In this document: piece after piece, positions 52,801 to 64,000 of the stretch
How the letters are laid out: the number at the start of each line of letters is the position of its first letter
How positions within the stretch are numbered: position 1 is the stretch's first letter
Source: an uncultured Acidobacteriota bacterium
GTDB lineage: Bacteria > Acidobacteriota > Vicinamibacteria > Vicinamibacterales > UBA8438
Direction: 5' to 3'
DNA length: 64,000 bases
Assembly (NCBI GenBank): GCA_913043225.1
Contig: CAJWLU010000002.1
Location: 128,001 to 192,000, forward strand
Program-made: the position numbers and the translations under genes
The notes under the pieces: generated by a model
The model's input: the letters and a program-made list of their open reading frames with translations, nothing else
The model's database searches: none
What the model was told of the DNA's origin: nothing

Positions 52801-54468
52801 GGAGCTCATGTCCGTGACCAGCTCTTCCCGAATGGCGTCCAGGGGCGGGTTGGTGACCTGCGCGAACAACTGCTTGAAGTAGTCGTAGAGCAGACGTGGC
52901 CGGTCCGAGAGCACCGCCAGCGCGGTGTCGGTGCCCATCGACCCGATCGGTTCAATGCCCTTGGCTGCCATCGGTCCGAGCAGGATCCGCAGGTCCTCCT
53001 CTGTGTAGCCGAATGCCCGTTGTCGTCTGAGGATCGACTCATGGGCCTCGGGCGGTGTGTAGGGCGCGTCCGGCAGATCACCGAGTTGCACCACGTGCGT
53101 GTCGAGCCACTCCTGATACGGGAACTCGGCGGCCAGACCCGACTTGATCTCCTCGTCGTCGATGATGCGGCCCTGAGCGGTGTCGACTAGGAAGATCCGA
53201 CCCGGGTGCAGACGTTCCTTGACGAGGACGTTCTCGGGCGGAATGTCGAGTACTCCGACCTCTGACGCCATGACCACCAGGTCGTCCTTGGTGACGTAGT
53301 AGCGGGATGGACGTAGACCGTTTCGGTCGAGAACCGCACCCACCACCGTCCCATCGGTAAACGCGATCGAGGCAGGTCCGTCCCAGGGCTCCATCAGCGA
53401 GGCGTGGTACTCGTAGAACGCGCGCCGGTCCGGGGACATCGACTCGTGCTTGCGCCACGGTTCCGGAATCATCATGAGCACCGCGTGTGGCAACGAGCGG
53501 CCGGTCATGACCAGGAACTCGAGCACGTTGTCGAACGTGGCGGTGTCGCTCTGGCCCTCCCGGGCGACCGGGAACAGCTTCTGGAGGTCGTCTCCGAATA
53601 GGTCCGATTCGCAGAGTGCTTCGCGCGCGCGCATCCAGTTGATGTTTCCGCGCAGGGTATTGATCTCACCGTTGTGAGCGATGTAGCGATACGGGTGCGC
53701 CAGGGGCCAGGACGGGAACGTATTGGTACTGAACCTGGAGTGAACGAGCGCCAGCGCCGATTCGAACTCCGGATCCATCAGGTCCGGGAACATGCCGGTC
53801 ACCTGATCGGCGATCAGCATCCCCTTGTAGACCACGGTCTGGGAGGAGAGGCTGGCTGCGTAGAACAGTCCTGCCTCGCTCAGGCCGAGGGTCTGTACGT
53901 CGCGGGCGAGGCGCTTACGGACGACGTAGAGCTTCCGCTCGAATCGCGCCTGGTCGGTGGGAGCGTCTGAGGCTGTCTCGCCGCGACCGATGAAGATCTG
54001 CCGGATGGTTGGTTCGCCCTGCCGAGCGGTGGCACCGAGCGCGCTGTCGTCGGTGGGGACGTCGCGCCACCCGAGCACAAAGAGTCCTTCCTCCAGCGCA
54101 ATCCGAGTGAGGCGATCCTCGATCGCGAGCCGTTCGTCCGACTTGCGGGGGAGGAACAGCATGCCCACTCCGTAGGCGCCCGGTTCAGGCAGTTCAAAGC
54201 CCAGCGCTGAGGTCTCGCGACGCAGGAAACGGTCCGGGATCTGCAGCAGGATGCCGGCGCCGTCTCCCGTGTTCTCCTCGCACCCGCAGGCGCCCCGATG
54301 CAGCAGGTTGACGCCTACCTCGAGCGCCTGCTCGACTAGTCGTCTGGATTTGATCCCCTTGATGTTCACGACGAACCCGACGCCGCAGGCGTCGTGCTCG
54401 TGACCGGGGTCGTACAAACCGTACGGGCCAGGGGGCGCGACCGATCGTGTCTGGTTGGATCGACTCAT
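49876..54468 (-). CDS. gltB: Glutamate synthase large subunit
   Basis: [45 protein letters not shown] domain. Confidence 0.97.
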
Positions 54469-55493
54469 TGCGTCGCTCCTCGGCCGGCCGACGCATGCGC
54501 GTCGCTACGGGGGGTGGCCTGTCGCTCGCTGGCATGGTGCCGGACGTTCGCTTGCGGTCGATGCAGCTCGGGCTTGACCGTTGGGGCGTCTGCATCCGCC
54601 TGTAACAGCTTGATGAACTCGGTGACGGCCGGGTTCAGCCGCCGATTCCGCCGATGCACGATGCTCAGCGGTCGCACTAGCGGAGGCTCGCCCGCTTTTA
54701 GCTCGAACGCCACCCTAAGCAGGGTGCCTCGCTCGACCTCTCGACGTAGCGTCGGTTCCGGCAGCACCGCGATCCCGGCGCCCTCGTCCACCGCTTGCTT
54801 GATGGTCTCGATGTTGTCGAACTCAGCCGTGATCTCCACTTCGACATCGTGGCTTCGGAGGAACCGGTCGATCGCCCGTCGGGCCGGGAGCTCACGGTCG
54901 AACGCCACGAAGCGCTCGCCCTGCAGGTCTTCTGGGCGGAGCGCACCCTTAGTGGTGATCCGACGCGCCAGTGAGTGGCCCGGCGAACAGGCGACCACCA
55001 TTAATTGCCGTTGCCAGGGAATCGCGGTCAGATCCCGACCGGGGGAGATGAACGACATCAGCCCGAGGTCGGACTGGTCGTTGAGCACCCGTTCACAGAT
55101 CTCGTCCGGGTGCATGTAGTCCAGGTCGACCCCGGCGCCGGGGACCAGCGTCCGGAACTGATCTACGTACTGACTGAGATGGTGTAGCCCGACCGAGTAG
55201 ATGGCGGCCACGCGGACCGTGTGCCCTGAAGGCTTCTGCTGTCGGCGCACAGCGTCCTCGAGTTCGTGATAGCGCTCCACGATCTCCTGGCAGCCTTTGA
55301 AGAAGATCTTGCCTTCGGCGGTCAATTTCCAGGGCCGTTGCGATCGGTCGATCAACTCGGCCCCAAGGTGACGCTCGAGCTGCCGAACCGCCTGGCTGGC
55401 TGCGGACTGGCTCACGGAGTTGGCCATCGCACCGCGCGAGAAGCTCTGATGACGCACGACGTCACAGAAAATGTTCAGCGTTTGGACGTGCAT
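54465..55493 (-). CDS. LysR-family transcriptional regulator
   Basis: [26 protein letters not shown] overlap with gltB. Confidence 0.9.
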
Positions 55494-55541
55494 GGGACCG
55501 ACCAATGTATCACACGAAGTCTAATATCCTGAAGACGCAGC

Positions 55542-55638: not shown

Positions 55639-57480
55639 TCAGGTGCTCGGGCGGAGCCGTGTTTCGGCGCGCATGAGCCCGTCGGTGGCCGTGTCGAAGA
55701 ACGTCTCGAATTGACTGCGGATACGGTCGAGCTTGGCCACCTCGGCGGCATCCGCCTCGGTATCCGGACTGACGATGTAGATGAAGGCCTGGCGGTGCAC
55801 TTTCTCCGACGTGTCGACCGACGGGAACCGCGGTCCTTCGATGTCGATCACGTCCTGGATCACGATGTCCCGTCTGGTGCCGTTGAAGGTGACCCCGACC
55901 TGCGGGGCCGACGTGTTTATCTCGACGGGAATAACGTTGGTCGGTGACTCGACATAGAAGAATGCCGGGACCTCGGTGTCCCGGCGGAGGCCCATCGCGT
56001 ACTGGTCCAGCGCACTGTAGCGCTCAACCGCCGCCACGGTTTCGAACATGCCGCCCCCCTTGTCCTCGATGTCGTTGCCTTCCATCACCGAAGCGTCCGA
56101 GTCGAAGAAGAAGCTCCAGTGGGCGTTAGCACGGCCGAGCAGGGCGGTCGACCGCTGTCGGTCCACGTCACTGAACTCGAAGAATGCAAGCCACCGGTGG
56201 CCGACCTCGTGTGCTAGTACGCCCATGGTGGTGTTCTCGCCCACAATCTTTTCGGCGAGGTCTTCAGAGTATTTGTCCAGCCAGCCCATGACCACGATGC
56301 TGCTGAGCTCCTGGCTGCGAAATTCTGGCGAGACCGGGAACGTCGGCTGGCCGAGTCCCTGGATGCTGTTGGCGACGGTGGTCTCGTAGGCGAACGCGCC
56401 ACCGAAGACGAGAGGCTGGTTCCCAAAGATGATGATCTGGTCGTAGGCGTCAGGGTGTGTCTGGAAGAACTTCTGCGCCACGGCCACGATGTCAAGCTCC
56501 GACTCCCGAGAGAATCGCTCGCCGATCGCGCCGGTCGAGCCGGTGTTCGCCTCTGCCTGACTGAGATCGACCGCATGGAATGTTCCGGTTCGTCCCGGAG
56601 ACACGCCGACGATCGCGTCGAACAGCTCGATGCCTTTGTCGAACGCCATCTCGACCACGCCGTCGGTCAGCAGGCTCGCCTGTACCGTGGTCGTGGCGCT
56701 CATCCCGAAACCGGGGACACGGCACCAGGTAACCGTGGTCCGGTCGGCCAAGGTGGCTGCGAAGACCCCTCCGCTGACGCTCGGGTCGAGGTCGGCCAGG
56801 AAGGGGGAGAGCCGGGGTGGCCCCGAAAGTAGTCGGGAAACGTTCCGAGGCGTGCTGGCGTTGTCACCTTCCTCAAAGGTGAGGTTGCCATCCGAGTTGA
56901 TGAAGAGTGACGAGTGGCTTTCGCCGAAGAATGGGAAGGTGAAGCCCATGGCGAGCGAACTGGTGTCGTCGTCGCCAAGCGTCACCCGGTCGCCAAGGGG
57001 CGAGCGAAACGCGGCCGAGCTCGTTCGGGCCACGTCGTAGCCGCCGCTGTCGTTGGGTGTGAAACGAAGGCCGAGATCGAGCAGGTCGTAGGGGTTGAGG
57101 GCCCGGAACAGGTCACCTTCGTCCTGGAGCACGGCGATGTCGCCGATATCCTCGGTCATCGCGTTGGGGCTCACCGGCGAGAGCTGTCCGTGGGCCAGGG
57201 CAGACCGGTGATTCCAGAGGCTGTCCAGCACGCCCCAAGGCGCATCCTGGTCTATGACGCCGGCCCACTTGTCGGGTCCTCCGGCTGATCGTGCCGCGGT
57301 GCGCAGCTCCACCGCGTCGCACGGGTTCGTATTCGCCGTTGGGGTGCTGGTTGGCGTCTGTGGCGCCCGGGTATCGGAGCCGGAATCACACGCGTGTTGG
57401 ACGCCGCTGGCCAGTACACCCGCCGCCACAATGGCCGTTTTCGTCCAATAGATCACATCGCCGAATATGTCGACGCTCAC
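55639..57480 (-). CDS. Exported protein with nidogen-like region and HExxH metallopeptidase motif
   Basis: GFTFPFFG...INSDGNLTF..PFLADLDP; AHEVGHRW; hydrophobic N-terminus with a possible lipobox. Confidence 0.65.
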   Translation of the reverse strand: MSVDIFGDVIYWTKTAIVAAGVLASGVQHACDSGSDTRAPQTPTSTPTANTNPCDAVELRTAARSAGGPDKWAGVIDQDAPWGVLDSLWNHRSALAHGQLSPVSPNAMTEDIGDIAVLQDEGDLFRALNPYDLLDLGLRFTPNDSGGYDVARTSSAAFRSPLGDRVTLGDDDTSSLAMGFTFPFFGESHSSLFINSDGNLTFEEGDNASTPRNVSRLLSGPPRLSPFLADLDPSVSGGVFAATLADRTTVTWCRVPGFGMSATTTVQASLLTDGVVEMAFDKGIELFDAIVGVSPGRTGTFHAVDLSQAEANTGSTGAIGERFSRESELDIVAVAQKFFQTHPDAYDQIIIFGNQPLVFGGAFAYETTVANSIQGLGQPTFPVSPEFRSQELSSIVVMGWLDKYSEDLAEKIVGENTTMGVLAHEVGHRWLAFFEFSDVDRQRSTALLGRANAHWSFFFDSDASVMEGNDIEDKGGGMFETVAAVERYSALDQYAMGLRRDTEVPAFFYVESPTNVIPVEINTSAPQVGVTFNGTRRDIVIQDVIDIEGPRFPSVDTSEKVHRQAFIYIVSPDTEADAAEVAKLDRIRSQFETFFDTATDGLMRAETRLRPST

Positions 57481-58076
57481 CGTAGCCGTGCTTCCAGCAG
57501 GTCAAGGGCGGCACCCGAGTCGCTTGTGGCCAGTACGCTGAAGCGTTCCCGCTCATCGATTTCCTGGGTGAGAGACCAATCATCGTCTGGTCCCATGGTG
57601 CTGAGCAGACGTTCGAACGTCGGCCTGAACGCCTCCATCGTCTCGCCACGGTTGGGTGCCCGCAGCCGGTCGTTGGCTAGGCATTCGAGTTGGTCTCCGC
57701 GGAAGCGGACGCGCCCGTCGAGAGTATCGTTCGTCTCGAGCAGTCGGCCAGCCTTCACGAGGGTCCGGGCCGCGGCATGAAGGCGGTCCGCCAACTCTCC
57801 CTCCTGATCGGCGCGCCTCGCGTACTGGAGGCCGAGACGCCCGCCTGACTGTTCGATCGCGTAGTAACCCTCGTGGGTTGCCAGCAGGACACTGGGCCCG
57901 CTCGTCATGTGGGAGTAGTCGGCCACGTCAATGAGCAGTCCGTCCACGGCCGATGTCTGGATCCAACGATGGAATACGGGGATTACGTCTCGCGGATCGA
58001 GCACCGTTTCCTCGTCGAGAAAGATCTTGAGTGCGATGCGTTGCAAGGTCCCAATCCTCGCGGCTGCGTCTGTCAC
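57477..58076 (-). CDS. Hypothetical protein coupled to sir
   Basis: GTGA overlap with the sir stop; IPVFHRWIQ, LLIDVADYSH, NDRL.APN. Confidence 0.7.
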   Translation of the reverse strand: MTDAAARIGTLQRIALKIFLDEETVLDPRDVIPVFHRWIQTSAVDGLLIDVADYSHMTSGPSVLLATHEGYYAIEQSGGRLGLQYARRADQEGELADRLHAAARTLVKAGRLLETNDTLDGRVRFRGDQLECLANDRLRAPNRGETMEAFRPTFERLLSTMGPDDDWSLTQEIDERERFSVLATSDSGAALDLLEARLR

Positions 58077-60355
58077 TGCACCCCCCCGGGTGAGGGCGCC
58101 GAACCGGCCTTGGGTGGGGAAGGCATAGACGCTAGGCGCGCCTGACAGGCGTGGGTCGCTTCGAGGAAGAGCTGCGCCTCTTCGATCAGCCGCCGCGCCG
58201 TATCGCGTTCGGTGGCAGGGCCCGGCTGTTCGTGTCTTCTGAACAAGTAGTTGGCGAACTTGCCCCTCGCGTACTTGTCGAAGAACACCTCGGTGTCGTA
58301 GAACCGGGTCCGGAACTCCATGACGATCTGTGTTGGTTCGTCGGAGATGTCGATGAACTCGGTCTTGATCAGCCCCTTGGCCGCCTGCAGCATCGCGCCG
58401 TACGCCAGCTGGTCGGCGCGCGTTGGGTCGTTCTCCTCGAGTGCGAGTTGCGCCTCGAAGACCTGGCTTTCGGCACCAGCCAGATCGAACTCGGTGAGCG
58501 AGACCACCTCTCCGGCGCATTCACCCACGCCCATGTCGCCGATGCCGAATTCGCGTGGGTCGCCCCAGTCGCGGAAGAAGTCTGGCCTCTCTTCCCGACC
58601 AGGAATCGCCATCAGATCCTTCAGGATCTCCTTTAGCGTTCGCTTGCCGATCCGGCTGGCAAAGTCGTAGAAGGTCTCGTTCTCCAGACGTTCCTCCACG
58701 AAACGGCTGGTAACCCGCCGAACCACTTCTGGAATGTTCTTGGATGGGACCGCCCCGATGGCCAGGCCATAGCTTCCGCCGTTTTCGACCCACTTACCTC
58801 CCAGGAGTACCTGGAAGTGGGGCACCACGTGACCACTGGCGTGTCGACTGACCCCGTAAAACCCGAGGTCGCTGATGTGGTGCTGTCCGCAGGAGTTGAA
58901 GCAGCCGCTGACTTTGATCCGCAGGTTTCGTGCGGACTCGTCAAGGGAGCTCATCTGATCGACGAGCTGCCGCTCGAGTTCCGCGGCTAGTCCGCGCGAC
59001 GACGCAATACCGAGCTTGCACGTATCGGTGCCTGGGCACGCCGTGATATCGGCAACGGTGCCAGCGCCCGGTTGCGCGAGGCCAATGGAGTCCAGCTCGC
59101 GGTGGAGCTCCGGCAGGTCCGCCTCCCGCACCCAACGCAGCACGATGTTCTGCTCGACCGTCGTTCGGATCGCGTCACCCACGAAGCGCCTGGCGAGGTC
59201 AGCCAGGCGTCGAAGCTGCCAACCAGACAGGTCGCCAAGTGAGAGCGTGATCGTGGCGACGACATAGCCGGCTTGCCGCTGGCGATAGACGTTGGTGCCT
59301 ACCCAGGTCTGGAAGGCACCGGAGTTCGGCGCGGTTTCGAGCGGAGCGCCCGCATGGAGCGGCCGTTCGCCCTGGGCAGGCACGTCGTCCAGATAGGCGG
59401 ACCACCGCTCGTCAGGCGCAAGCGCGTCGCGCTCTTCCTTCACGAGGCGACGAAACTCGTCGATGCCCAGTTGGGCGACCAGGAACTTGATGCGCGCCCG
59501 GGCACGGTTGCGCTTCTCGCCCAGCCTGGCGAAGACGCGTGAGATGGCTTGCAGCGTCGGCAGCACTTCTTCCTCGGTCAGGAAGGGGTCGAACAGCTTC
59601 GCTTCGTGCGGTACTGCGCCCAGGCCGCCGCCCACGTAAACCTCGAAGCCACGTTCGATGGTCCCGTTGACCTCCCGCGTCACCGCAATGCCGCCAAAGT
59701 CGTGCATGTTGACGAGGCCGCAGGCGTGCTCTCGGCAGCCGGAGAAGGCGACCTTGAACTTTCTCCCGAAGTCCTGGGTATCGGGGTGTCCGAGGAGGAA
59801 ATGCATGGACGCTTCGGCGTAGGGCGTGACGTCGAAGGTCTCGTCCCGGCAGACGCCGGATAACGGACAGGCCGTGACGTTGCGCACGGTGTTACCGCAC
59901 GCTTCACGCGTGGTGATACCGACGGCGGCCAGTCGGCGCATCAGCTCCGGGGTGTCGTCGATATGGACGAAGTGCAGCTGGATGTCCTGGCGGGTCGTTA
60001 TGTGGCAGACGCCGTCTGAGTACTCCTCGGACAGATTGGCCAGGGTGTCCATCTGGTCCGCCGTGAGGCCGCCAAACGGGATCTTGATCCGCTGCATACC
60101 TGGAGCGTCCCAGACCGTGTCCGGCCCCTTGGTTTGCCCATCCGAAGGAAAGGGGAGCAGCTTCACGCCGGTCCCGTCGTTGCGCTGGCCGTTGTCGTAG
60201 CGTTGCCCGTACGCTCCCCGCCGAAGTCTGGTTTCAGCGAACACCTTGTCGTCGATCTTGCCCTGGCGCTTCAGTGCAATCTGGTTCTCGTAGGTATCGA
60301 TCTCTCTCCCGAGGTCGTCCGGGATCCGAGCGCCTAATGTGTCTTTCCAGCTCAT
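58073..60355 (-). CDS. sir: Ferredoxin-type sulfite (nitrite/sulfite) reductase hemoprotein with C-terminal helical extension
   Basis: TTRQDIQ, ACPGTDTC and SGCFNSCG siroheme/4Fe-4S ligands; cys operon context. Confidence 0.88.
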   Translation of the reverse strand: MSWKDTLGARIPDDLGREIDTYENQIALKRQGKIDDKVFAETRLRRGAYGQRYDNGQRNDGTGVKLLPFPSDGQTKGPDTVWDAPGMQRIKIPFGGLTADQMDTLANLSEEYSDGVCHITTRQDIQLHFVHIDDTPELMRRLAAVGITTREACGNTVRNVTACPLSGVCRDETFDVTPYAEASMHFLLGHPDTQDFGRKFKVAFSGCREHACGLVNMHDFGGIAVTREVNGTIERGFEVYVGGGLGAVPHEAKLFDPFLTEEEVLPTLQAISRVFARLGEKRNRARARIKFLVAQLGIDEFRRLVKEERDALAPDERWSAYLDDVPAQGERPLHAGAPLETAPNSGAFQTWVGTNVYRQRQAGYVVATITLSLGDLSGWQLRRLADLARRFVGDAIRTTVEQNIVLRWVREADLPELHRELDSIGLAQPGAGTVADITACPGTDTCKLGIASSRGLAAELERQLVDQMSSLDESARNLRIKVSGCFNSCGQHHISDLGFYGVSRHASGHVVPHFQVLLGGKWVENGGSYGLAIGAVPSKNIPEVVRRVTSRFVEERLENETFYDFASRIGKRTLKEILKDLMAIPGREERPDFFRDWGDPREFGIGDMGVGECAGEVVSLTEFDLAGAESQVFEAQLALEENDPTRADQLAYGAMLQAAKGLIKTEFIDISDEPTQIVMEFRTRFYDTEVFFDKYARGKFANYLFRRHEQPGPATERDTARRLIEEAQLFLEATHACQARLASMPSPPKAGSAPSPGGVQ

Positions 60356-60356
60356 G

Positions 60357-61175
60357 TCAGCCCTTTCCCTCGGCGGTCTGTGCCGCGTCGGTCGCCGGTG
60401 GACTGGCAAGTACCGTCGCCAGGTCGACCACCGCCCCGATAATGATCGTCCCGGTGGCGTCTTGCGGATGTGGACTGGCTGTGCGCCCTAGTTGCTCCAG
60501 GCTGCCCGTCCAGGTATGCGCCGCCGGGGTGGCGGCGTCAGAGGCGATGGCCACGCTCGTATCCGGAGGCCAGCCCCGGTCGAGCAGGCATCGCGCGATG
60601 GTCCGCCGCTGCGTCAGGCCCATTAGCACCACCACGGTGGCGCTGTCTGGCGCTAGTGATTCGAGTATCGGTGCGTAGCTGCTCTCATCGTGCCCGGAGA
60701 CGACGACGAAGCCGGAGGCGAGTCCGCGATGGGTCACCGGGATGCCGGCCAGCGCCGGCGCGGCGATCGCTGCGCTCACTCCCTGCAAGACCTCGAACGG
60801 GATTCCCGCGGCGCGTAGCGCAAGGCCCTCTTCGCCACCGCGTCCTAGTACAAACGGGTCTCCTCCCTTGAGACGCACCACGTGGCGTCCCCGTCGCGAG
60901 GCACGGATCATCACCCGGATGATCGTGTTCTGGGGGACCGAGCGCCGTCCCGCGCGCTTGCCGACCGAGAAGCACTGGGCCCGGGAGGCGAGTTCGATCA
61001 CCTCTGGCGAGACCAGGGCATCGTAGAGTACCAACTCCGCGGCTCGCAGGCGCTCGGCGGCGCCGAGCGTCAGCAGCGCGCGGTCGCCCGGTCCAGCGCC
61101 GACAAGCGAGACGAGTCCTCTGGAGCCGTTGGGTGTCATGGTCGTCGTTTGGCGCTGACGTATCGTTCGGGACAC
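60357..61175 (-). CDS. cobA: Uroporphyrinogen-III C-methyltransferase
   Basis: VGAGPGD, RLKGGDPF..GRGGEE, GIPVTHR; start may instead be 61139. Confidence 0.92.
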   Translation of the reverse strand: MSRTIRQRQTTTMTPNGSRGLVSLVGAGPGDRALLTLGAAERLRAAELVLYDALVSPEVIELASRAQCFSVGKRAGRRSVPQNTIIRVMIRASRRGRHVVRLKGGDPFVLGRGGEEGLALRAAGIPFEVLQGVSAAIAAPALAGIPVTHRGLASGFVVVSGHDESSYAPILESLAPDSATVVVLMGLTQRRTIARCLLDRGWPPDTSVAIASDAATPAAHTWTGSLEQLGRTASPHPQDATGTIIIGAVVDLATVLASPPATDAAQTAEGKG

Positions 61176-61178
61176 GTG

Positions 61179-61754
61179 TCAGTGCTGTCGATCTTCGTAG
61201 AGACCGGCCAGCGCGCGCAAGAGCAGGGGCCGGCGTTCGTCCATGGGGACCTCGTTCGCCATCCACTGTCTGCGCTGTTCCTTGGCCGTGGACAGCCACC
61301 GCGCCACTTCTTTTTCCGGGAGCAGCGCCTCGAGTGCCTGTCGAATCAGACCGGCCAGCGCCGGCGCCTGCCCATCGGTCGAGATGGCCACCGTTACGCC
61401 TCCCCGCCGGACGACGCCTCCCAGGTAGACCGTGGCATTAGGGGGGTCGTCGACGGCGTTCACGAAGAGCTGGCGTGCCTCGGCCTCTCGTGCCACGTCT
61501 CGGTTGACTTCCGGAGGCGCCGCGGCCACGACCATCCACGCGTCATCGAGGTCGGTCGGCTGAAAGCGACGCTTGATGAGCTCGGCTTCTGCCGTTCGGA
61601 TTTCAGGCACCATCTCGGGGGCGACCACAACTATATCCGCGCCGGCGGCCGTCAGTGCGACCAGCTTGGAGGCGGCGACGGGTCCCCCACCGACGACGAG
61701 TACCCGTCGCCCGGTCAGTTTCAGGAATGCCGGGAAGAGCGTGGTCGCACTCAT
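61179..61754 (-). CDS. cysG: Precorrin-2 dehydrogenase/sirohydrochlorin ferrochelatase (CysG N-terminal module)
   Basis: VVGGGPVA, VNAVDDP, AISTDG.AP. Confidence 0.88.
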   Translation of the reverse strand: MSATTLFPAFLKLTGRRVLVVGGGPVAASKLVALTAAGADIVVVAPEMVPEIRTAEAELIKRRFQPTDLDDAWMVVAAAPPEVNRDVAREAEARQLFVNAVDDPPNATVYLGGVVRRGGVTVAISTDGQAPALAGLIRQALEALLPEKEVARWLSTAKEQRRQWMANEVPMDERRPLLLRALAGLYEDRQH

Positions 61755-61802: not shown

Positions 61803-62567
61803 TCAGACGGTCGAGCGAGCCTCCTGTGCTTCGCTCGACGTCGACGGCGGTTCGTGGAGGCCACACTCGGTCTTCGACGTCCCACGCCACCGGCCAGCCC
61901 GGTCGTCTTCTCCGGCGGCCACCCGGCCGGTGCAAGGAAGACAACCGATGCTCGGGTAGCCCTGATCATGCAGCGGATTGTAGGGCACGTCGTGCCGCAG
62001 CAGGTGTTGCCAGGTGTCCTTCTTGGTCCACCGCACGAGCGGGTTGACCTTCTCGAGGCCGAACTTAGCATCCATTTCCACGACGAGAGTATTGGCGCGA
62101 GCCGCGGTCTGGTCCCGGCGAATGGCGGTGATCCAGGCGTCGACTCCCGCCAGTTGACTTTCCAGCGGGCTCACCTTCCGCTTGGCGCAGCACAGATCCG
62201 GCTCGCGCGTCCAAAGCTCCGGGCCATGCGCGGCCGCCTGCACCTCGACGGTCTGTTCCGGTGACACGCGCCGGATCGTCACCCCGTAGCGCGACTCGAG
62301 ACGCTGCCAGAGGTCGTAGGTCTCCGGGAAGAGCAGTCCCGTGTCGAGTGTGAACATGTCGATCGGCAGTTGGTGACGACCGATCAGGTCGATCAGGACG
62401 CAGCCCTCCGCGCCGAAACCGGTGGCGAAGGTTAGCCGCGAGCCGTAGCGGTCAGCCGCCCACTTCAGGATCTCGAGCGGAGCGGCTTCTTCGAGTTCCC
62501 GCGCCGGGTCGATCAACTCGGCGGGGTCGAAGGTGGCCGTGTCCGGGCGAGTCAGCGTGTCAGTCAT
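61803..62567 (-). CDS. cysH: APS reductase (4Fe-4S-type CysH)
   Basis: LDTG, CC..RK, SIGCLPCT, RAGRW, ECGLH. Confidence 0.93.
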   Translation of the reverse strand: MTDTLTRPDTATFDPAELIDPARELEEAAPLEILKWAADRYGSRLTFATGFGAEGCVLIDLIGRHQLPIDMFTLDTGLLFPETYDLWQRLESRYGVTIRRVSPEQTVEVQAAAHGPELWTREPDLCCAKRKVSPLESQLAGVDAWITAIRRDQTAARANTLVVEMDAKFGLEKVNPLVRWTKKDTWQHLLRHDVPYNPLHDQGYPSIGCLPCTGRVAAGEDDRAGRWRGTSKTECGLHEPPSTSSEAQEARSTV

Positions 62568-62602
62568 TACTGTTCCAGTCGGTCGTTTCGAGAACGCGGT
62601 CG

Positions 62603-62641
62603 AAGAAAAAAAGCCCGGGAGCCGTTGGGCCCCCGAGCTTT
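62603..62641 (-). terminator. Attenuator intrinsic terminator upstream of cysH
   Basis: RNA AAAGCUCGGGGGCC-CAAC-GGCUCCCGGGCUUU-UUUUCUU. Confidence 0.88.
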
Positions 62642-62681
62642 GGTCTTTCGCGTTGATGCTTTCGTTCTTATGAGTGATGCC

Positions 62682-62771
62682 TCAGCGCGACACGACCGTC
62701 AGCTCGGGGGCCCAGGAGGCCTCCGGACAACAGCAACAACAAGTGATAGTCGTGTATGCGCGGGCGCTCAA
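62682..62771 (-). CDS. Poly-Cys leader peptide (29 aa)
   Basis: TTG start; MSARAYTTITCCCCCPEASWAPELTVVSR*; Cys codons at 62727-62741. Confidence 0.8.
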   Translation of the reverse strand: MSARAYTTITCCCCCPEASWAPELTVVSR

Positions 62772-62780
62772 AACGCCAAT

Positions 62781-62809
62781 GTTGTACCCCTTCGCTCCTG
62801 ATTCGTCAA
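62781..62809 (-). promoter_or_regulatory. sigma70 promoter of the cys leader/operon
   Basis: TTGACG-N17-TACAAC; the -10 box ends 9 nt before the leader TTG. Confidence 0.7.
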
Positions 62810-62835
62810 GCATGGTTGTGACCTGTCTGGTTGAG

Positions 62836-63999
62836 CTACCTCAAATACCCCAGGCTGCGGAGCCGTTCTAGCTCCTCAGATGACAGCGTGCCGGTCGACT
62901 CGTCGTCGGTGGGGAGTTGTCCGGCTCTAGTGCGCCGGCGCCACCGTTCAAGCTCGGCCCGCAGCTGCTCGACGACACCGGGGTGTATCGCTGCCAGGTC
63001 GGTCTGGTTCATTGGGTCAGCTTGGTGGTCGTAGAGCTCGTACTCTGGTTCGTCGGCCGACCGCTGCTCGTTGTGGATCAGGCGCCACCCGTCCAGCACA
63101 AGCGCCACCGACGCATGCCGGTCTTCGATGCCAGCCGCCTCGCGGGTGTGTTCCTCAGCGACTGCGGGGACCTCTAGCCATTGAGACGCGTCGGTCGCTC
63201 CTCCCGTTCCGGTCGTGGTCAGCAGCGGCAACAGGCTCTGGCCTTGCGCTTCCTCAGGCACCGGTAGACCGCTCAGCTCGAGAAGTGTCGGCATGAGGTC
63301 GATACTCCGCACTGTCTCTGACACCACCTGGCCGCCAGGAATCTTCCCCGGACCCCACAGCAGCAGCGGTATCTTGGTCTGCTCTCCGTAGACCGTGTGT
63401 CCATGCCAGGATTCTCCGTGCTCAAGGAATTCCTCACCGTGGTCGCTCAGCACCGCCACGACCACGCGGTCTGCCAGGCCGCTGGACTCGAGTCGCTCGA
63501 CCAGACGCCCGATTTCCGCGTCCATGCCACGGATGGAACCGTCGTACCAAGCCCGGCGATAGTCCATGAACGGGCCGACGTCGACGCTGGCCGCGCGGAT
63601 TTGGGCCCGCGTTGGCATGACCTGACCCCGGAGTAGCGGGCTCTCGATCTCACTCCGAATGTCAGCCATGCGAGCCTGGTGAGCTGCCCGTGCCTTCGGG
63701 TCGGCCCACCAGGTGTCGTACGGAGGTCGAGGTTCGAACGGACTATGGGGATCGAACACGTGCAGGAAGGCGAAGAACGGCGCGCCTTTACGACGATCGA
63801 GCCAGTCCAGCAGTCGGTCTACGTACTCGCGCGCCGACTTACTCCGCTTTGTTCCGGTGCGTGACGTGGCTTCGTGAAGCTCTTCGAAGCCCTGGTGCAG
63901 ATTGGTGTCGGCGCCGGTGAAGTTGACCGACGAGAACGACACCGTCGCGTAGCCGGCCGTGCGGTAGGCTTCCGCCAGCGTGACCGCGGCGCTGGGCAG
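62836..63999 (-). CDS. Sulfatase-family protein (5' end outside window)
   Basis: TLAE..RTAGYAT, HVFDPHSPF, SDHGEEF.EH, IDLMPT, ERLRSLGY; frame stays open to the edge. Confidence 0.88.
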   Translation of the reverse strand: MPSAAVTLAEAYRTAGYATVSFSSVNFTGADTNLHQGFEELHEATSRTGTKRSKSAREYVDRLLDWLDRRKGAPFFAFLHVFDPHSPFEPRPPYDTWWADPKARAAHQARMADIRSEIESPLLRGQVMPTRAQIRAASVDVGPFMDYRRAWYDGSIRGMDAEIGRLVERLESSGLADRVVVAVLSDHGEEFLEHGESWHGHTVYGEQTKIPLLLWGPGKIPGGQVVSETVRSIDLMPTLLELSGLPVPEEAQGQSLLPLLTTTGTGGATDASQWLEVPAVAEEHTREAAGIEDRHASVALVLDGWRLIHNEQRSADEPEYELYDHQADPMNQTDLAAIHPGVVEQLRAELERWRRRTRAGQLPTDDESTGTLSSEELERLRSLGYLR

Positions 64000-64000
64000 C

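Follow-up and report, generated by a model that had tools for sequence, protein, structure and literature searches.

At the head of a sulfate-assimilation operon in an uncultured acidobacterium, we found an element that we read, with a probability of about 0.88, as a classical ribosome-mediated transcription attenuator predicted to sense charged tRNA-Cys. It lies in a 64,000-nucleotide stretch of one contig, which we call the window. Its promoter-like motif, its near-leaderless ORF with a run of Cys codons, its capacity for alternative 1:2, 2:3 and 3:4 pairings and its fixed link to sulfate assimilation emerge from sequence, comparison and folding. A preliminary description of the locus had proposed that stalling on the Cys codons favors an antiterminator and allows read-through into cysH-cysG-cobA-sir, and conservation, gene association and folding with a masked ribosome support this core reading as a sequence-based prediction. 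Most likely, the operon would be transcribed only when cysteine runs short.

Leader-peptide transcription attenuation is established for Trp, His, Leu, Thr, Ile/Val and Phe, and the mechanism itself is textbook. As far as the accessible parts of the literature go, the only tested cysteine case we found acts on translation, the terminator-type cases are predictions for cysS, and neither this target operon nor this lineage nor the complete four-segment layout seems to have been described before. A terminator-type attenuator conserved at the sulfate-reduction operon in an acidobacterial order that is widespread and mostly uncultured would close this gap, and its read-through ratio could report cysteine limitation in metatranscriptomes.

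All features of the leader lie on the minus strand. The putative sigma-70-like promoter (62781..62809) consists of a -35 hexamer, TTGACG (62809-62804), a 17-nt spacer and a -10 hexamer, TACAAC (62786-62781), and it scores below the threshold of a consensus promoter scanner. Spacing (+7 after the -10 hexamer) places the probable transcription start at 62774, 3 nt before a TTG codon, which would yield a near-leaderless mRNA. The leader ORF (62682..62771) has 29 codons, from TTG at 62771 to TGA at 62684-62682, with no Shine-Dalgarno (SD) sequence, and it is predicted to be translated. Its five Cys control codons (62727..62741) read TGT TGT TGC TGT TGT; the sequence thus agrees with the earlier count of four TGT in five, and TGT makes up 32% of Cys codons in the genome's long ORFs. 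The peptide belongs to no NCBIfam or Pfam family, the one match (E 0.72) being a chance one. Just two runs of five Cys codons, in any frame, occur in the whole genome, the leader's being one, and among the 23 runs of at least four Cys codons (any frame, genome-wide), the leader's alone has a T6 tract within 200 nt. As for leaderless use genome-wide, 14 starts of long ORFs lie 6-15 nt after 279 promoter-like motifs vs. 1 after 282 control motifs; at 21-40 nt, the figures are 22 vs. 7, and there is no sharp peak.

Beyond the control codons, folding models give the locus the full trp-type 1:2 / 2:3 / 3:4 layout. The region is far more stable than expected from its composition (z = -5.46; 0/200 shuffles equally stable). 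A protector hairpin, segment 1:2 (62705..62725; 62725-62717 with 62713-62705, -13.1 kcal/mol), begins 2 nt past the last Cys codon, where a ribosome stalled on the control codons could reach it. Segment 2, the 5' strand of the antiterminator (62686..62714), has an outer arm (62714-62701), which starts 12 nt after the last Cys codon, and inner arms at 62697-62694 and 62690-62686. These inner arms pair with 62645-62642 and 62652-62648 of segment 3 (62626..62652), respectively, forming two helices stacked inside the outer one, and the remainder of segment 3 (62639-62626) is shared with the terminator. The 2:3 fold reaches -52.3 kcal/mol. The predicted intrinsic terminator, 3:4 (62606..62641), comprises a 14-bp stem (62641-62610) with two G-U pairs (-25.5 to -25.8 kcal/mol) and a U7 tract (62612-62606) ending 38 nt before the cysH ATG. 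The positions first given for the promoter, ORF, Cys codons, arms and terminator proved correct base for base, as did the exact 14-nt complementarity of 62714-62701 and 62639-62626, in which the partner takes in 2 nt of the terminator loop. Antiterminator and terminator were also rightly called mutually exclusive, since 2:3 uses the terminator's 5' arm. That account described the terminator and the 14-bp outer arm of the antiterminator and overlooked the two inner helices, which make the whole longer than 14 bp, as well as the protector hairpin at 62725-62705.

The first gene downstream, cysH (61803..62567, -), encodes (P)APS reductase (NCBIfam PRK02090, 255 bits; cut-off 154) and is the only PF01507 match in the genome, with no second, CysD-like match found. 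Three genes follow on the same strand: a siroheme synthase N-terminal domain of the CysG-N type (61179..61754; TIGR01470 above cut-off), cobA for uroporphyrinogen-III C-methyltransferase (60357..61175; PRK06136 and TIGR01469 above cut-off) and a nitrite/sulfite reductase family hemoprotein (58073..60355, probable start; Pfam NIR_SIR and NIR_SIR_ferr). The last product falls under the cut-offs of all NCBIfam NirA, Sir and CysI models, and gene context suggests that it is a sulfite reductase. Together, cysH, cysG-N, cobA and the NIR/SIR gene serve cysteine synthesis, as the target genes of an attenuator with Cys control codons should. On the other side of the leader, a sulfatase-family gene (62836..64000, -; Pfam Sulfatase, its ORF running off the window) ends 27 nt before the -35 hexamer and lies outside the switch.

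Several features of the surroundings are recorded here in their own right. Beyond the reductase gene are two ORFs without a Pfam match on the same strand (57477-about 58000 and 55639-57480, -), and farther on a LysR regulator (54465-55505) and then a large glutamate-synthase-like ORF. The genome's ATP sulfurylase, which is Sat-type, is located apart from the operon, about 9 kb past the window end (G000:C2:199987-201819, +). The 1500 nt ahead of the sat domain match contain neither a Cys run nor a T6 tract, and the same holds for 8 of the 11 PALP matches in this genome. The RNA model described below found no second copy of the element in the genome; its next match there (L151, E 0.0015) was rejected as a hairpin between converging genes with no Cys run.

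To follow the element through relatives, we searched 61 genomes for CysH, which matched in 44, and examined the best 30 of these 44 loci, the window being one of them. The promoter, short Cys-run ORF and terminator were present in 29 of these best 30 loci; the sole locus without the element (L019) starts at a contig edge with a T-run. We refer to the 29 element-bearing loci, window included, as the 29 homologues. In each, the element heads the operon, either directly before cysH or with one or two extra genes ahead of cysH. A TTGAC hexamer lies 30-50 nt before the leader start in 29/29, with a TANNNT-like hexamer 17-20 nt on, although this promoter count arises partly by construction because the script looked for TTGAC. 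All 29 carry a Cys-codon ORF, so the Cys run whose conservation upstream of related cysH genes had been proposed as a check is indeed conserved. An in-frame ATG, GTG or TTG occurs 7-15 nt after the -10 hexamer in 28/29, and out-of-frame starts occur there in 4/29. An ATG or GTG start is available in 27/29; the window and L016 alone have only TTG, and a same-genus genome has GTG at that position.

The leaders contain 2-8 Cys codons each. TGT accounts for 91 of the 135 Cys codons across the 29 homologues (67%, vs. 32% in the genome's long ORFs), and the run varies by synonymous TGT/TGC change and by whole codons in length. Beyond the run, the peptide is not conserved: a 1-nt loop indel turns APELTV into GPRADGR while the RNA sequence is kept. 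Because the frame past the run shifts while the RNA stays, we infer that the Cys codons and the RNA matter and the peptide does not.

These patterns also bear on whether a ribosome throws the switch at all. The last Cys codon is UGU in 28/29, possibly through a constraint at the RNA level, conservation of segments 2 and 3 extends from pairing to sequence, and the window's leader ORF starts at a TTG without an SD sequence; each would fit a real switch operated instead by a metabolite (riboswitch), by uncharged tRNA (T-box-like) or by a protein binding the UGUUGU repeat. Yet the repeat varies solely in the third base of its codons and by multiples of three nucleotides, it is in frame with the start codon in 28/29, and an Rfam search of the locus returned no family at E up to 10 except two chance matches far below gathering score. 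Matches at gathering score were likewise absent from 20 related loci (0/20), and identity as a T-box, SAM or other Rfam cis-regulatory RNA was rejected on these grounds. We therefore consider a non-ribosomal trigger improbable.

We examined the three pairings across the 29 homologues. The two helices of the terminator are 93-96% paired, with two-sided changes at 6 of 13 pairs. When 1:2 and 3:4 were scored as one structure, none of 500 shuffles reached the observed covariation score. The antiterminator pairs in 79.9% of alignment cells vs. 32-51% when the strands are slid, its 2:3 duplex beats shuffles (at most 5/100 as good) in 25/29, and a leader's own segment 2 pairs better with its own than with others' segment 3 in 18/29. 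Covariation of 2:3 did not exceed chance in the family MAFFT alignment, some rows of which are one base out of register (463/500 shuffles as high). The covarying arms that the preliminary description suggested looking for were thus found in the joint structure of protector and terminator and, above shuffles, not in the antiterminator. For the protector, the 26-nt segment that follows the last Cys codon is more stable than the mean of its shuffles in 29/29, with stem sequences that vary from lineage to lineage; in duplex shuffling, 1:2 reached significance in only 1/29.

We propose the following sequence of events. Transcription would start near 62774 and a ribosome would load at the TTG. With Cys-tRNA scarce, the ribosome would wait on the last Cys codons and cover segment 1 (about 9 nt beyond the A site), and segment 2 would then pair with segment 3 through the two inner helices and the outer arm, ahead of segment 4. 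Because 2:3 would zip before segment 4 is made, no terminator would form and cysH-cysG-cobA-sir would be transcribed. With cysteine plentiful, the ribosome would cross segment 2 and rest at the stop codon on the inner arms, 1:2 would close behind it, 3:4 would form and transcription would end near 62606-62602. The choice between 2:3 and 3:4 would be kinetic. One step differs from the earlier account, in which translation to the stop masks the 14-nt arm: by the time a ribosome reaches the stop codon, most of that arm lies behind it and only the inner arms are covered.

Folding with the ribosome modelled as a 30-nt mask at equilibrium reproduces this switch in the window. At full length, the probability of the terminator was 0.00 with the ribosome on the Cys codons, 0.97 four to twelve codons on and 0.70 at the stop. 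Without a ribosome, the probability was 0.00 in the window, whereas the other 28 homologues are predicted to terminate. In most homologues, the terminator wins at full-length equilibrium at every ribosome position, and its probability falls below 0.5 with the ribosome at the last Cys codon in only 2/29. Full-length equilibrium folding, which fits the window and fails most homologues, was therefore dropped as a general test of the switch, the choice being co-transcriptional; because the terminator wins in every state in most relatives, control must be kinetic.

When the transcript was cut before segment 4, segment 2 held segment 3 in 27/29 with the ribosome on the last Cys codon and in 0/29 with the ribosome eight codons farther on. 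In the same static nascent model, 2:3 formed in 18/29 without a ribosome and in 14/29 with the ribosome at the stop. It also beat 1:2 in 28/29, over a barrier that was low in a static model (median 1.9 kcal/mol), so 1:2 is not shown to be a strong lock. For both reasons, the OFF state would rest on timing.

The window's copy is unusual in its balance. Its exact 14-nt complement is specific to this lineage, a same-genus genome having two mismatches there, and most relatives have one or two outer-arm mismatches and a stronger terminator. The perfect outer arm is not an assembly error, because RNA contigs carry the window's letters at those places. The OFF-minus-ON gap is the smallest of the 29 (4.1 kcal/mol vs. 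a median of 19.3), and because its antiterminator is the strongest relative to the terminator, this copy is predicted to be leakier, with higher basal read-through.

To gauge the wider distribution, we built a covariance model from the 29 elements, whose training sequences match by construction. Counting weak matches, it hit 35 of 36 same-family genomes and 13 of 24 genomes from other families of the order; these tallies include false matches, because the weak matches L163, L165 and L172 have no Cys leader. Among 20 further matches that were fetched, 16 have a Cys-run ORF, mostly before cysG-N or cobA. One, set apart here (L166; G029:C10:77213-77337, +), has a Trp-Trp-Cys-Cys short ORF and a terminator before a fused dehydroquinase/shikimate dehydrogenase gene, and is possibly an aromatic-amino-acid attenuator. 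Of 121 genomes sampled across the phylum, the model matched only 8, which suggests that the element's sequence family is largely order-specific. Of the three matches outside the order, two are plain terminators and one, from another family of the phylum (L190; G165:C1:2320925-2321059, +), has seven consecutive Cys codons, a terminator and an ORF that reads as cysteine-synthase-like.

A pattern scan of named genomes gave at least 119 matches, of which 86 passed a filter for a short ORF with at least three Cys codons; the grouping used for folding and pairing tests left out 8 of these 86. Among the matches listed, the filter was passed by 55 of 56 records labelled Acidobacteriota or Vicinamibacterales, some of which overlap the relative set; in these the element mostly precedes cysH, cysD, cysG, tauE or cysK-like genes. 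The labels suggest that the window, too, belongs to Vicinamibacterales. The 26 nt after the Cys run folded better than the shuffled mean in 54/55 Acidobacteriota-labelled elements vs. 15/33 controls among the matches listed, and the 2:3 duplex beat shuffles in 43 of these 55 listed elements. Own segments paired better than others' in 48/55 wider elements and 21/33 controls, again among the matches listed and with kin that are not independent.

The genes that follow the element are mostly linked to sulfur. Of 83 downstream ORFs scanned among the matches listed, 41 match the CysH/CysD, CysG-N, TauE, DUF2061, PALP or Sat families and another 16 have matches elsewhere, chiefly to transport, Cys/Met or redox families. 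The other 26 have no match, many being short or probably in the wrong frame; no tRNA-synthetase family appeared among these listed matches. The element stands at the operon head whichever gene comes first: cysH, DUF2061, cysG-N, cysD-like, tauE, cysK-like or sat. It could serve as a marker for finding sulfur genes of unknown function, such as DUF2061 and PF03601. One relative (G014) has two copies, one ahead of cysH and the other ahead of cysG-N (L010, L162). In another (L161, in G004), the element precedes a PF03601 membrane protein, a placement that suggests a sulfur role for that family. Redoxin/AhpC-TSA genes, one of them a 1-Cys peroxiredoxin, follow the element at L035, L100 and L169, so the regulon may extend to thiol redox proteins.

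The same thioredoxin/peroxiredoxin-like genes at those three homologues, together with the rarity of UGU among Cys codons here (the 32% given above), would suit a ribosome-mediated attenuator that senses general translation slowdown or nascent-peptide arrest rather than tRNA-Cys charging. This is very unlikely, as only the Cys codons are conserved while the flanking peptide differs even in reading frame, and most downstream genes make or import reduced sulfur.

Leaders of related design occur under other labels. Cys-run leaders with the same type of terminator were seen at L034, L051, L061, L071, L086, L104, L057, L059 and L054, whose records carry the labels Deltaproteobacteria, Binatia, Thermodesulfobacteriota, Polyangiaceae, Gemmataceae and Margulisiibacteriota; several stand ahead of genes for ABC solute-binding proteins or permeases, which likely serve sulfate uptake. 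A second leader type combines Cys and Met codons (often "CCRM") with a close antiterminator arm (L032, L044, L045, L077, L099, L102, L111, L123, L136, L148, L066 and L083), and those from L032 to L148 in this order are mostly Clostridia-labelled. This type precedes Cys/Met PLP enzymes, amino-acid ABC transporters and an NlpA lipoprotein; its 2:3 duplex beats shuffles in 10/12, it shows no 1:2 signal, and the six scanned have no Rfam match. At L039 and L133, Vicinamibacterales-like elements sit in Bifidobacteriaceae- and Betaproteobacteria-labelled records, reflecting mislabelled bins or transfer.

Comparison with known systems draws on the accessible parts of the papers cited. Like E. coli trpL and leuL and Salmonella hisL (10.1101/834739, PMC5314783, PMC4007540), the element combines a short ORF holding a run of cognate codons with a 1:2 protector, a 2:3 antiterminator, a 3:4 intrinsic terminator and a cognate biosynthetic operon. 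Unlike them, it targets cysteine and sulfate assimilation, lacks an SD sequence and starts about 3 nt from the probable 5' end, has a long three-helix antiterminator spanning the stop codon and a 30-45 nt A/C-rich spacer, and has an ORF that runs 12-22 codons past the control codons. In those parts, the closest precedent is uORFC-8-2 of Rhodobacterales, upstream of cysS, predicted to have a two-Cys uORF and a U-tailed intrinsic terminator with the same proposed stalling logic (PMC8632094). In that case, the two tandem Cys codons (UGC dominant) fall inside the first stem, the start is AUG, and the uORF occurs only before cysS in Alphaproteobacteria, with no antiterminator described in the section seen; here, comparing descriptions only, cysH lies downstream and five Cys codons precede stem 1:2.

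Leaderless cysteine leaders also have parallels, again within the accessible portions of these sources. Mycobacterial Ms5788A is a leaderless consecutive-Cys sORF before cysteine/sulfur genes and senses tRNA-Cys, as is predicted here (10.1101/834739, PMC1262725, PMC13096801). Leaders of that kind start at a 5' AUG or GUG; the window has TTG about 3 nt from the probable 5' end, and 27/29 homologues have an ATG or GTG available. In E. coli, UUG works poorly as a leaderless start (PMC9031893). A leaderless two-Cys leader precedes cysS in Deinococcus deserti, which also has a trp leader (PMC4007540), and leaderless attenuators in Streptomyces lividans include trpL, ilvL, leuL2 and metL (PMC8079986). 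All of these have AUG/GUG starts, and for the D. deserti cysS leader, which does not precede a sulfate-assimilation operon, the part seen describes no terminator or antiterminator.

The output of the mycobacterial leaders raises a further alternative, in which the Cys tract or leader would sequester the cysH ribosome-binding site and the hairpin would be secondary. Translational control is the only mode experimentally shown for poly-Cys leaders in the literature found: in Ms5788A, the Cys tract pairs with a downstream SD sequence, and the authors, who knew of no uORF attenuation for cysteine, exclude transcription termination (10.1101/834739). In the window's 211-nt minimum-energy fold, the 5' end is paired with bases close to the start of cysH. 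We regard this alternative as highly improbable, because a covarying U-tract hairpin is present in 29/29 and because elements differ in which gene comes first and in how far it lies from the U-tract, leaving no fixed SD partner apparent. Actinobacterial cys leaders, by contrast, have no conserved terminators in the part of the source seen (PMC1262725), and here the intrinsic terminator would be the output of transcription attenuation.

The preliminary description knew of no intrinsic-terminator Cys attenuator in Acidobacteriota; we found none either, but such elements have been predicted elsewhere, for cysS (PMC8632094). Our full-text search returned no terminator-type Cys attenuator before sulfate-assimilation genes and none in Acidobacteriota, and the parts examined of PMC2965389, PMC5314783, PMC11109978, PMC13236596 and PMC13096801 contain no such element; a prior prediction could be held in supplements (PMC2965389, PMC8632094, the list of 14 leaders of PMC4007540) or in attenuation surveys.

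A broader joint reading goes further, and we hold it only tentatively, at slightly less than even odds. The window would be one copy of the classical Cys attenuator that the mycobacterial paper called undescribed, acting as the main RNA-level control of sulfur assimilation across Vicinamibacterales, with a regulon of several genes (cysH, cysD, cysG, sat, cysK, sulfate transport and thiol peroxidases). Binatia and other delta-type lineages, Planctomycetota and Clostridia (the Cys/Met "CCRM" type) would have analogous counterparts that may have evolved independently. The long three-helix antiterminator would switch by kinetics alone, adjusted by two conserved mismatches that this lineage has closed.

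Contigs from four RNA-library runs, marine metagenome by record and from two studies, are about 95-99% alike to the window. One contig from run X2 spans exactly 62774-62602, which takes it from the predicted start to slightly beyond the U-tract; its depth is 30.8, and that run's two contigs just downstream have depths of 5.9 and 15. An X4 contig likewise stops at 62774, and contigs from X3 and X4 cross the terminator. This fit to the predicted start and terminator is a weak hint, given that X2 and X4 belong to a single study, that contigs reveal neither ends nor levels and that the libraries may contain DNA.

That the leader is no more than a chance ORF next to an ordinary, leaky terminator, such as one belonging to the upstream sulfatase gene, is scarcely credible: no other terminator was found between the sulfatase stop and the leader, as this idea would have it, but across an order the promoter, start, Cys run and three helices recur as a set with sulfur genes, and RNA contigs cover the leader with none upstream of 62774 or over the sulfatase end, itself a weak hint. 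Because the frame is conserved, the peptide variable and the terminator covarying, the rival explanations fit less well than attenuation by a ribosome reading Cys codons. Strain variants in the RNA contigs at 62617 and 62687 fall inside the helices, and in both the pairing is kept as G-U.
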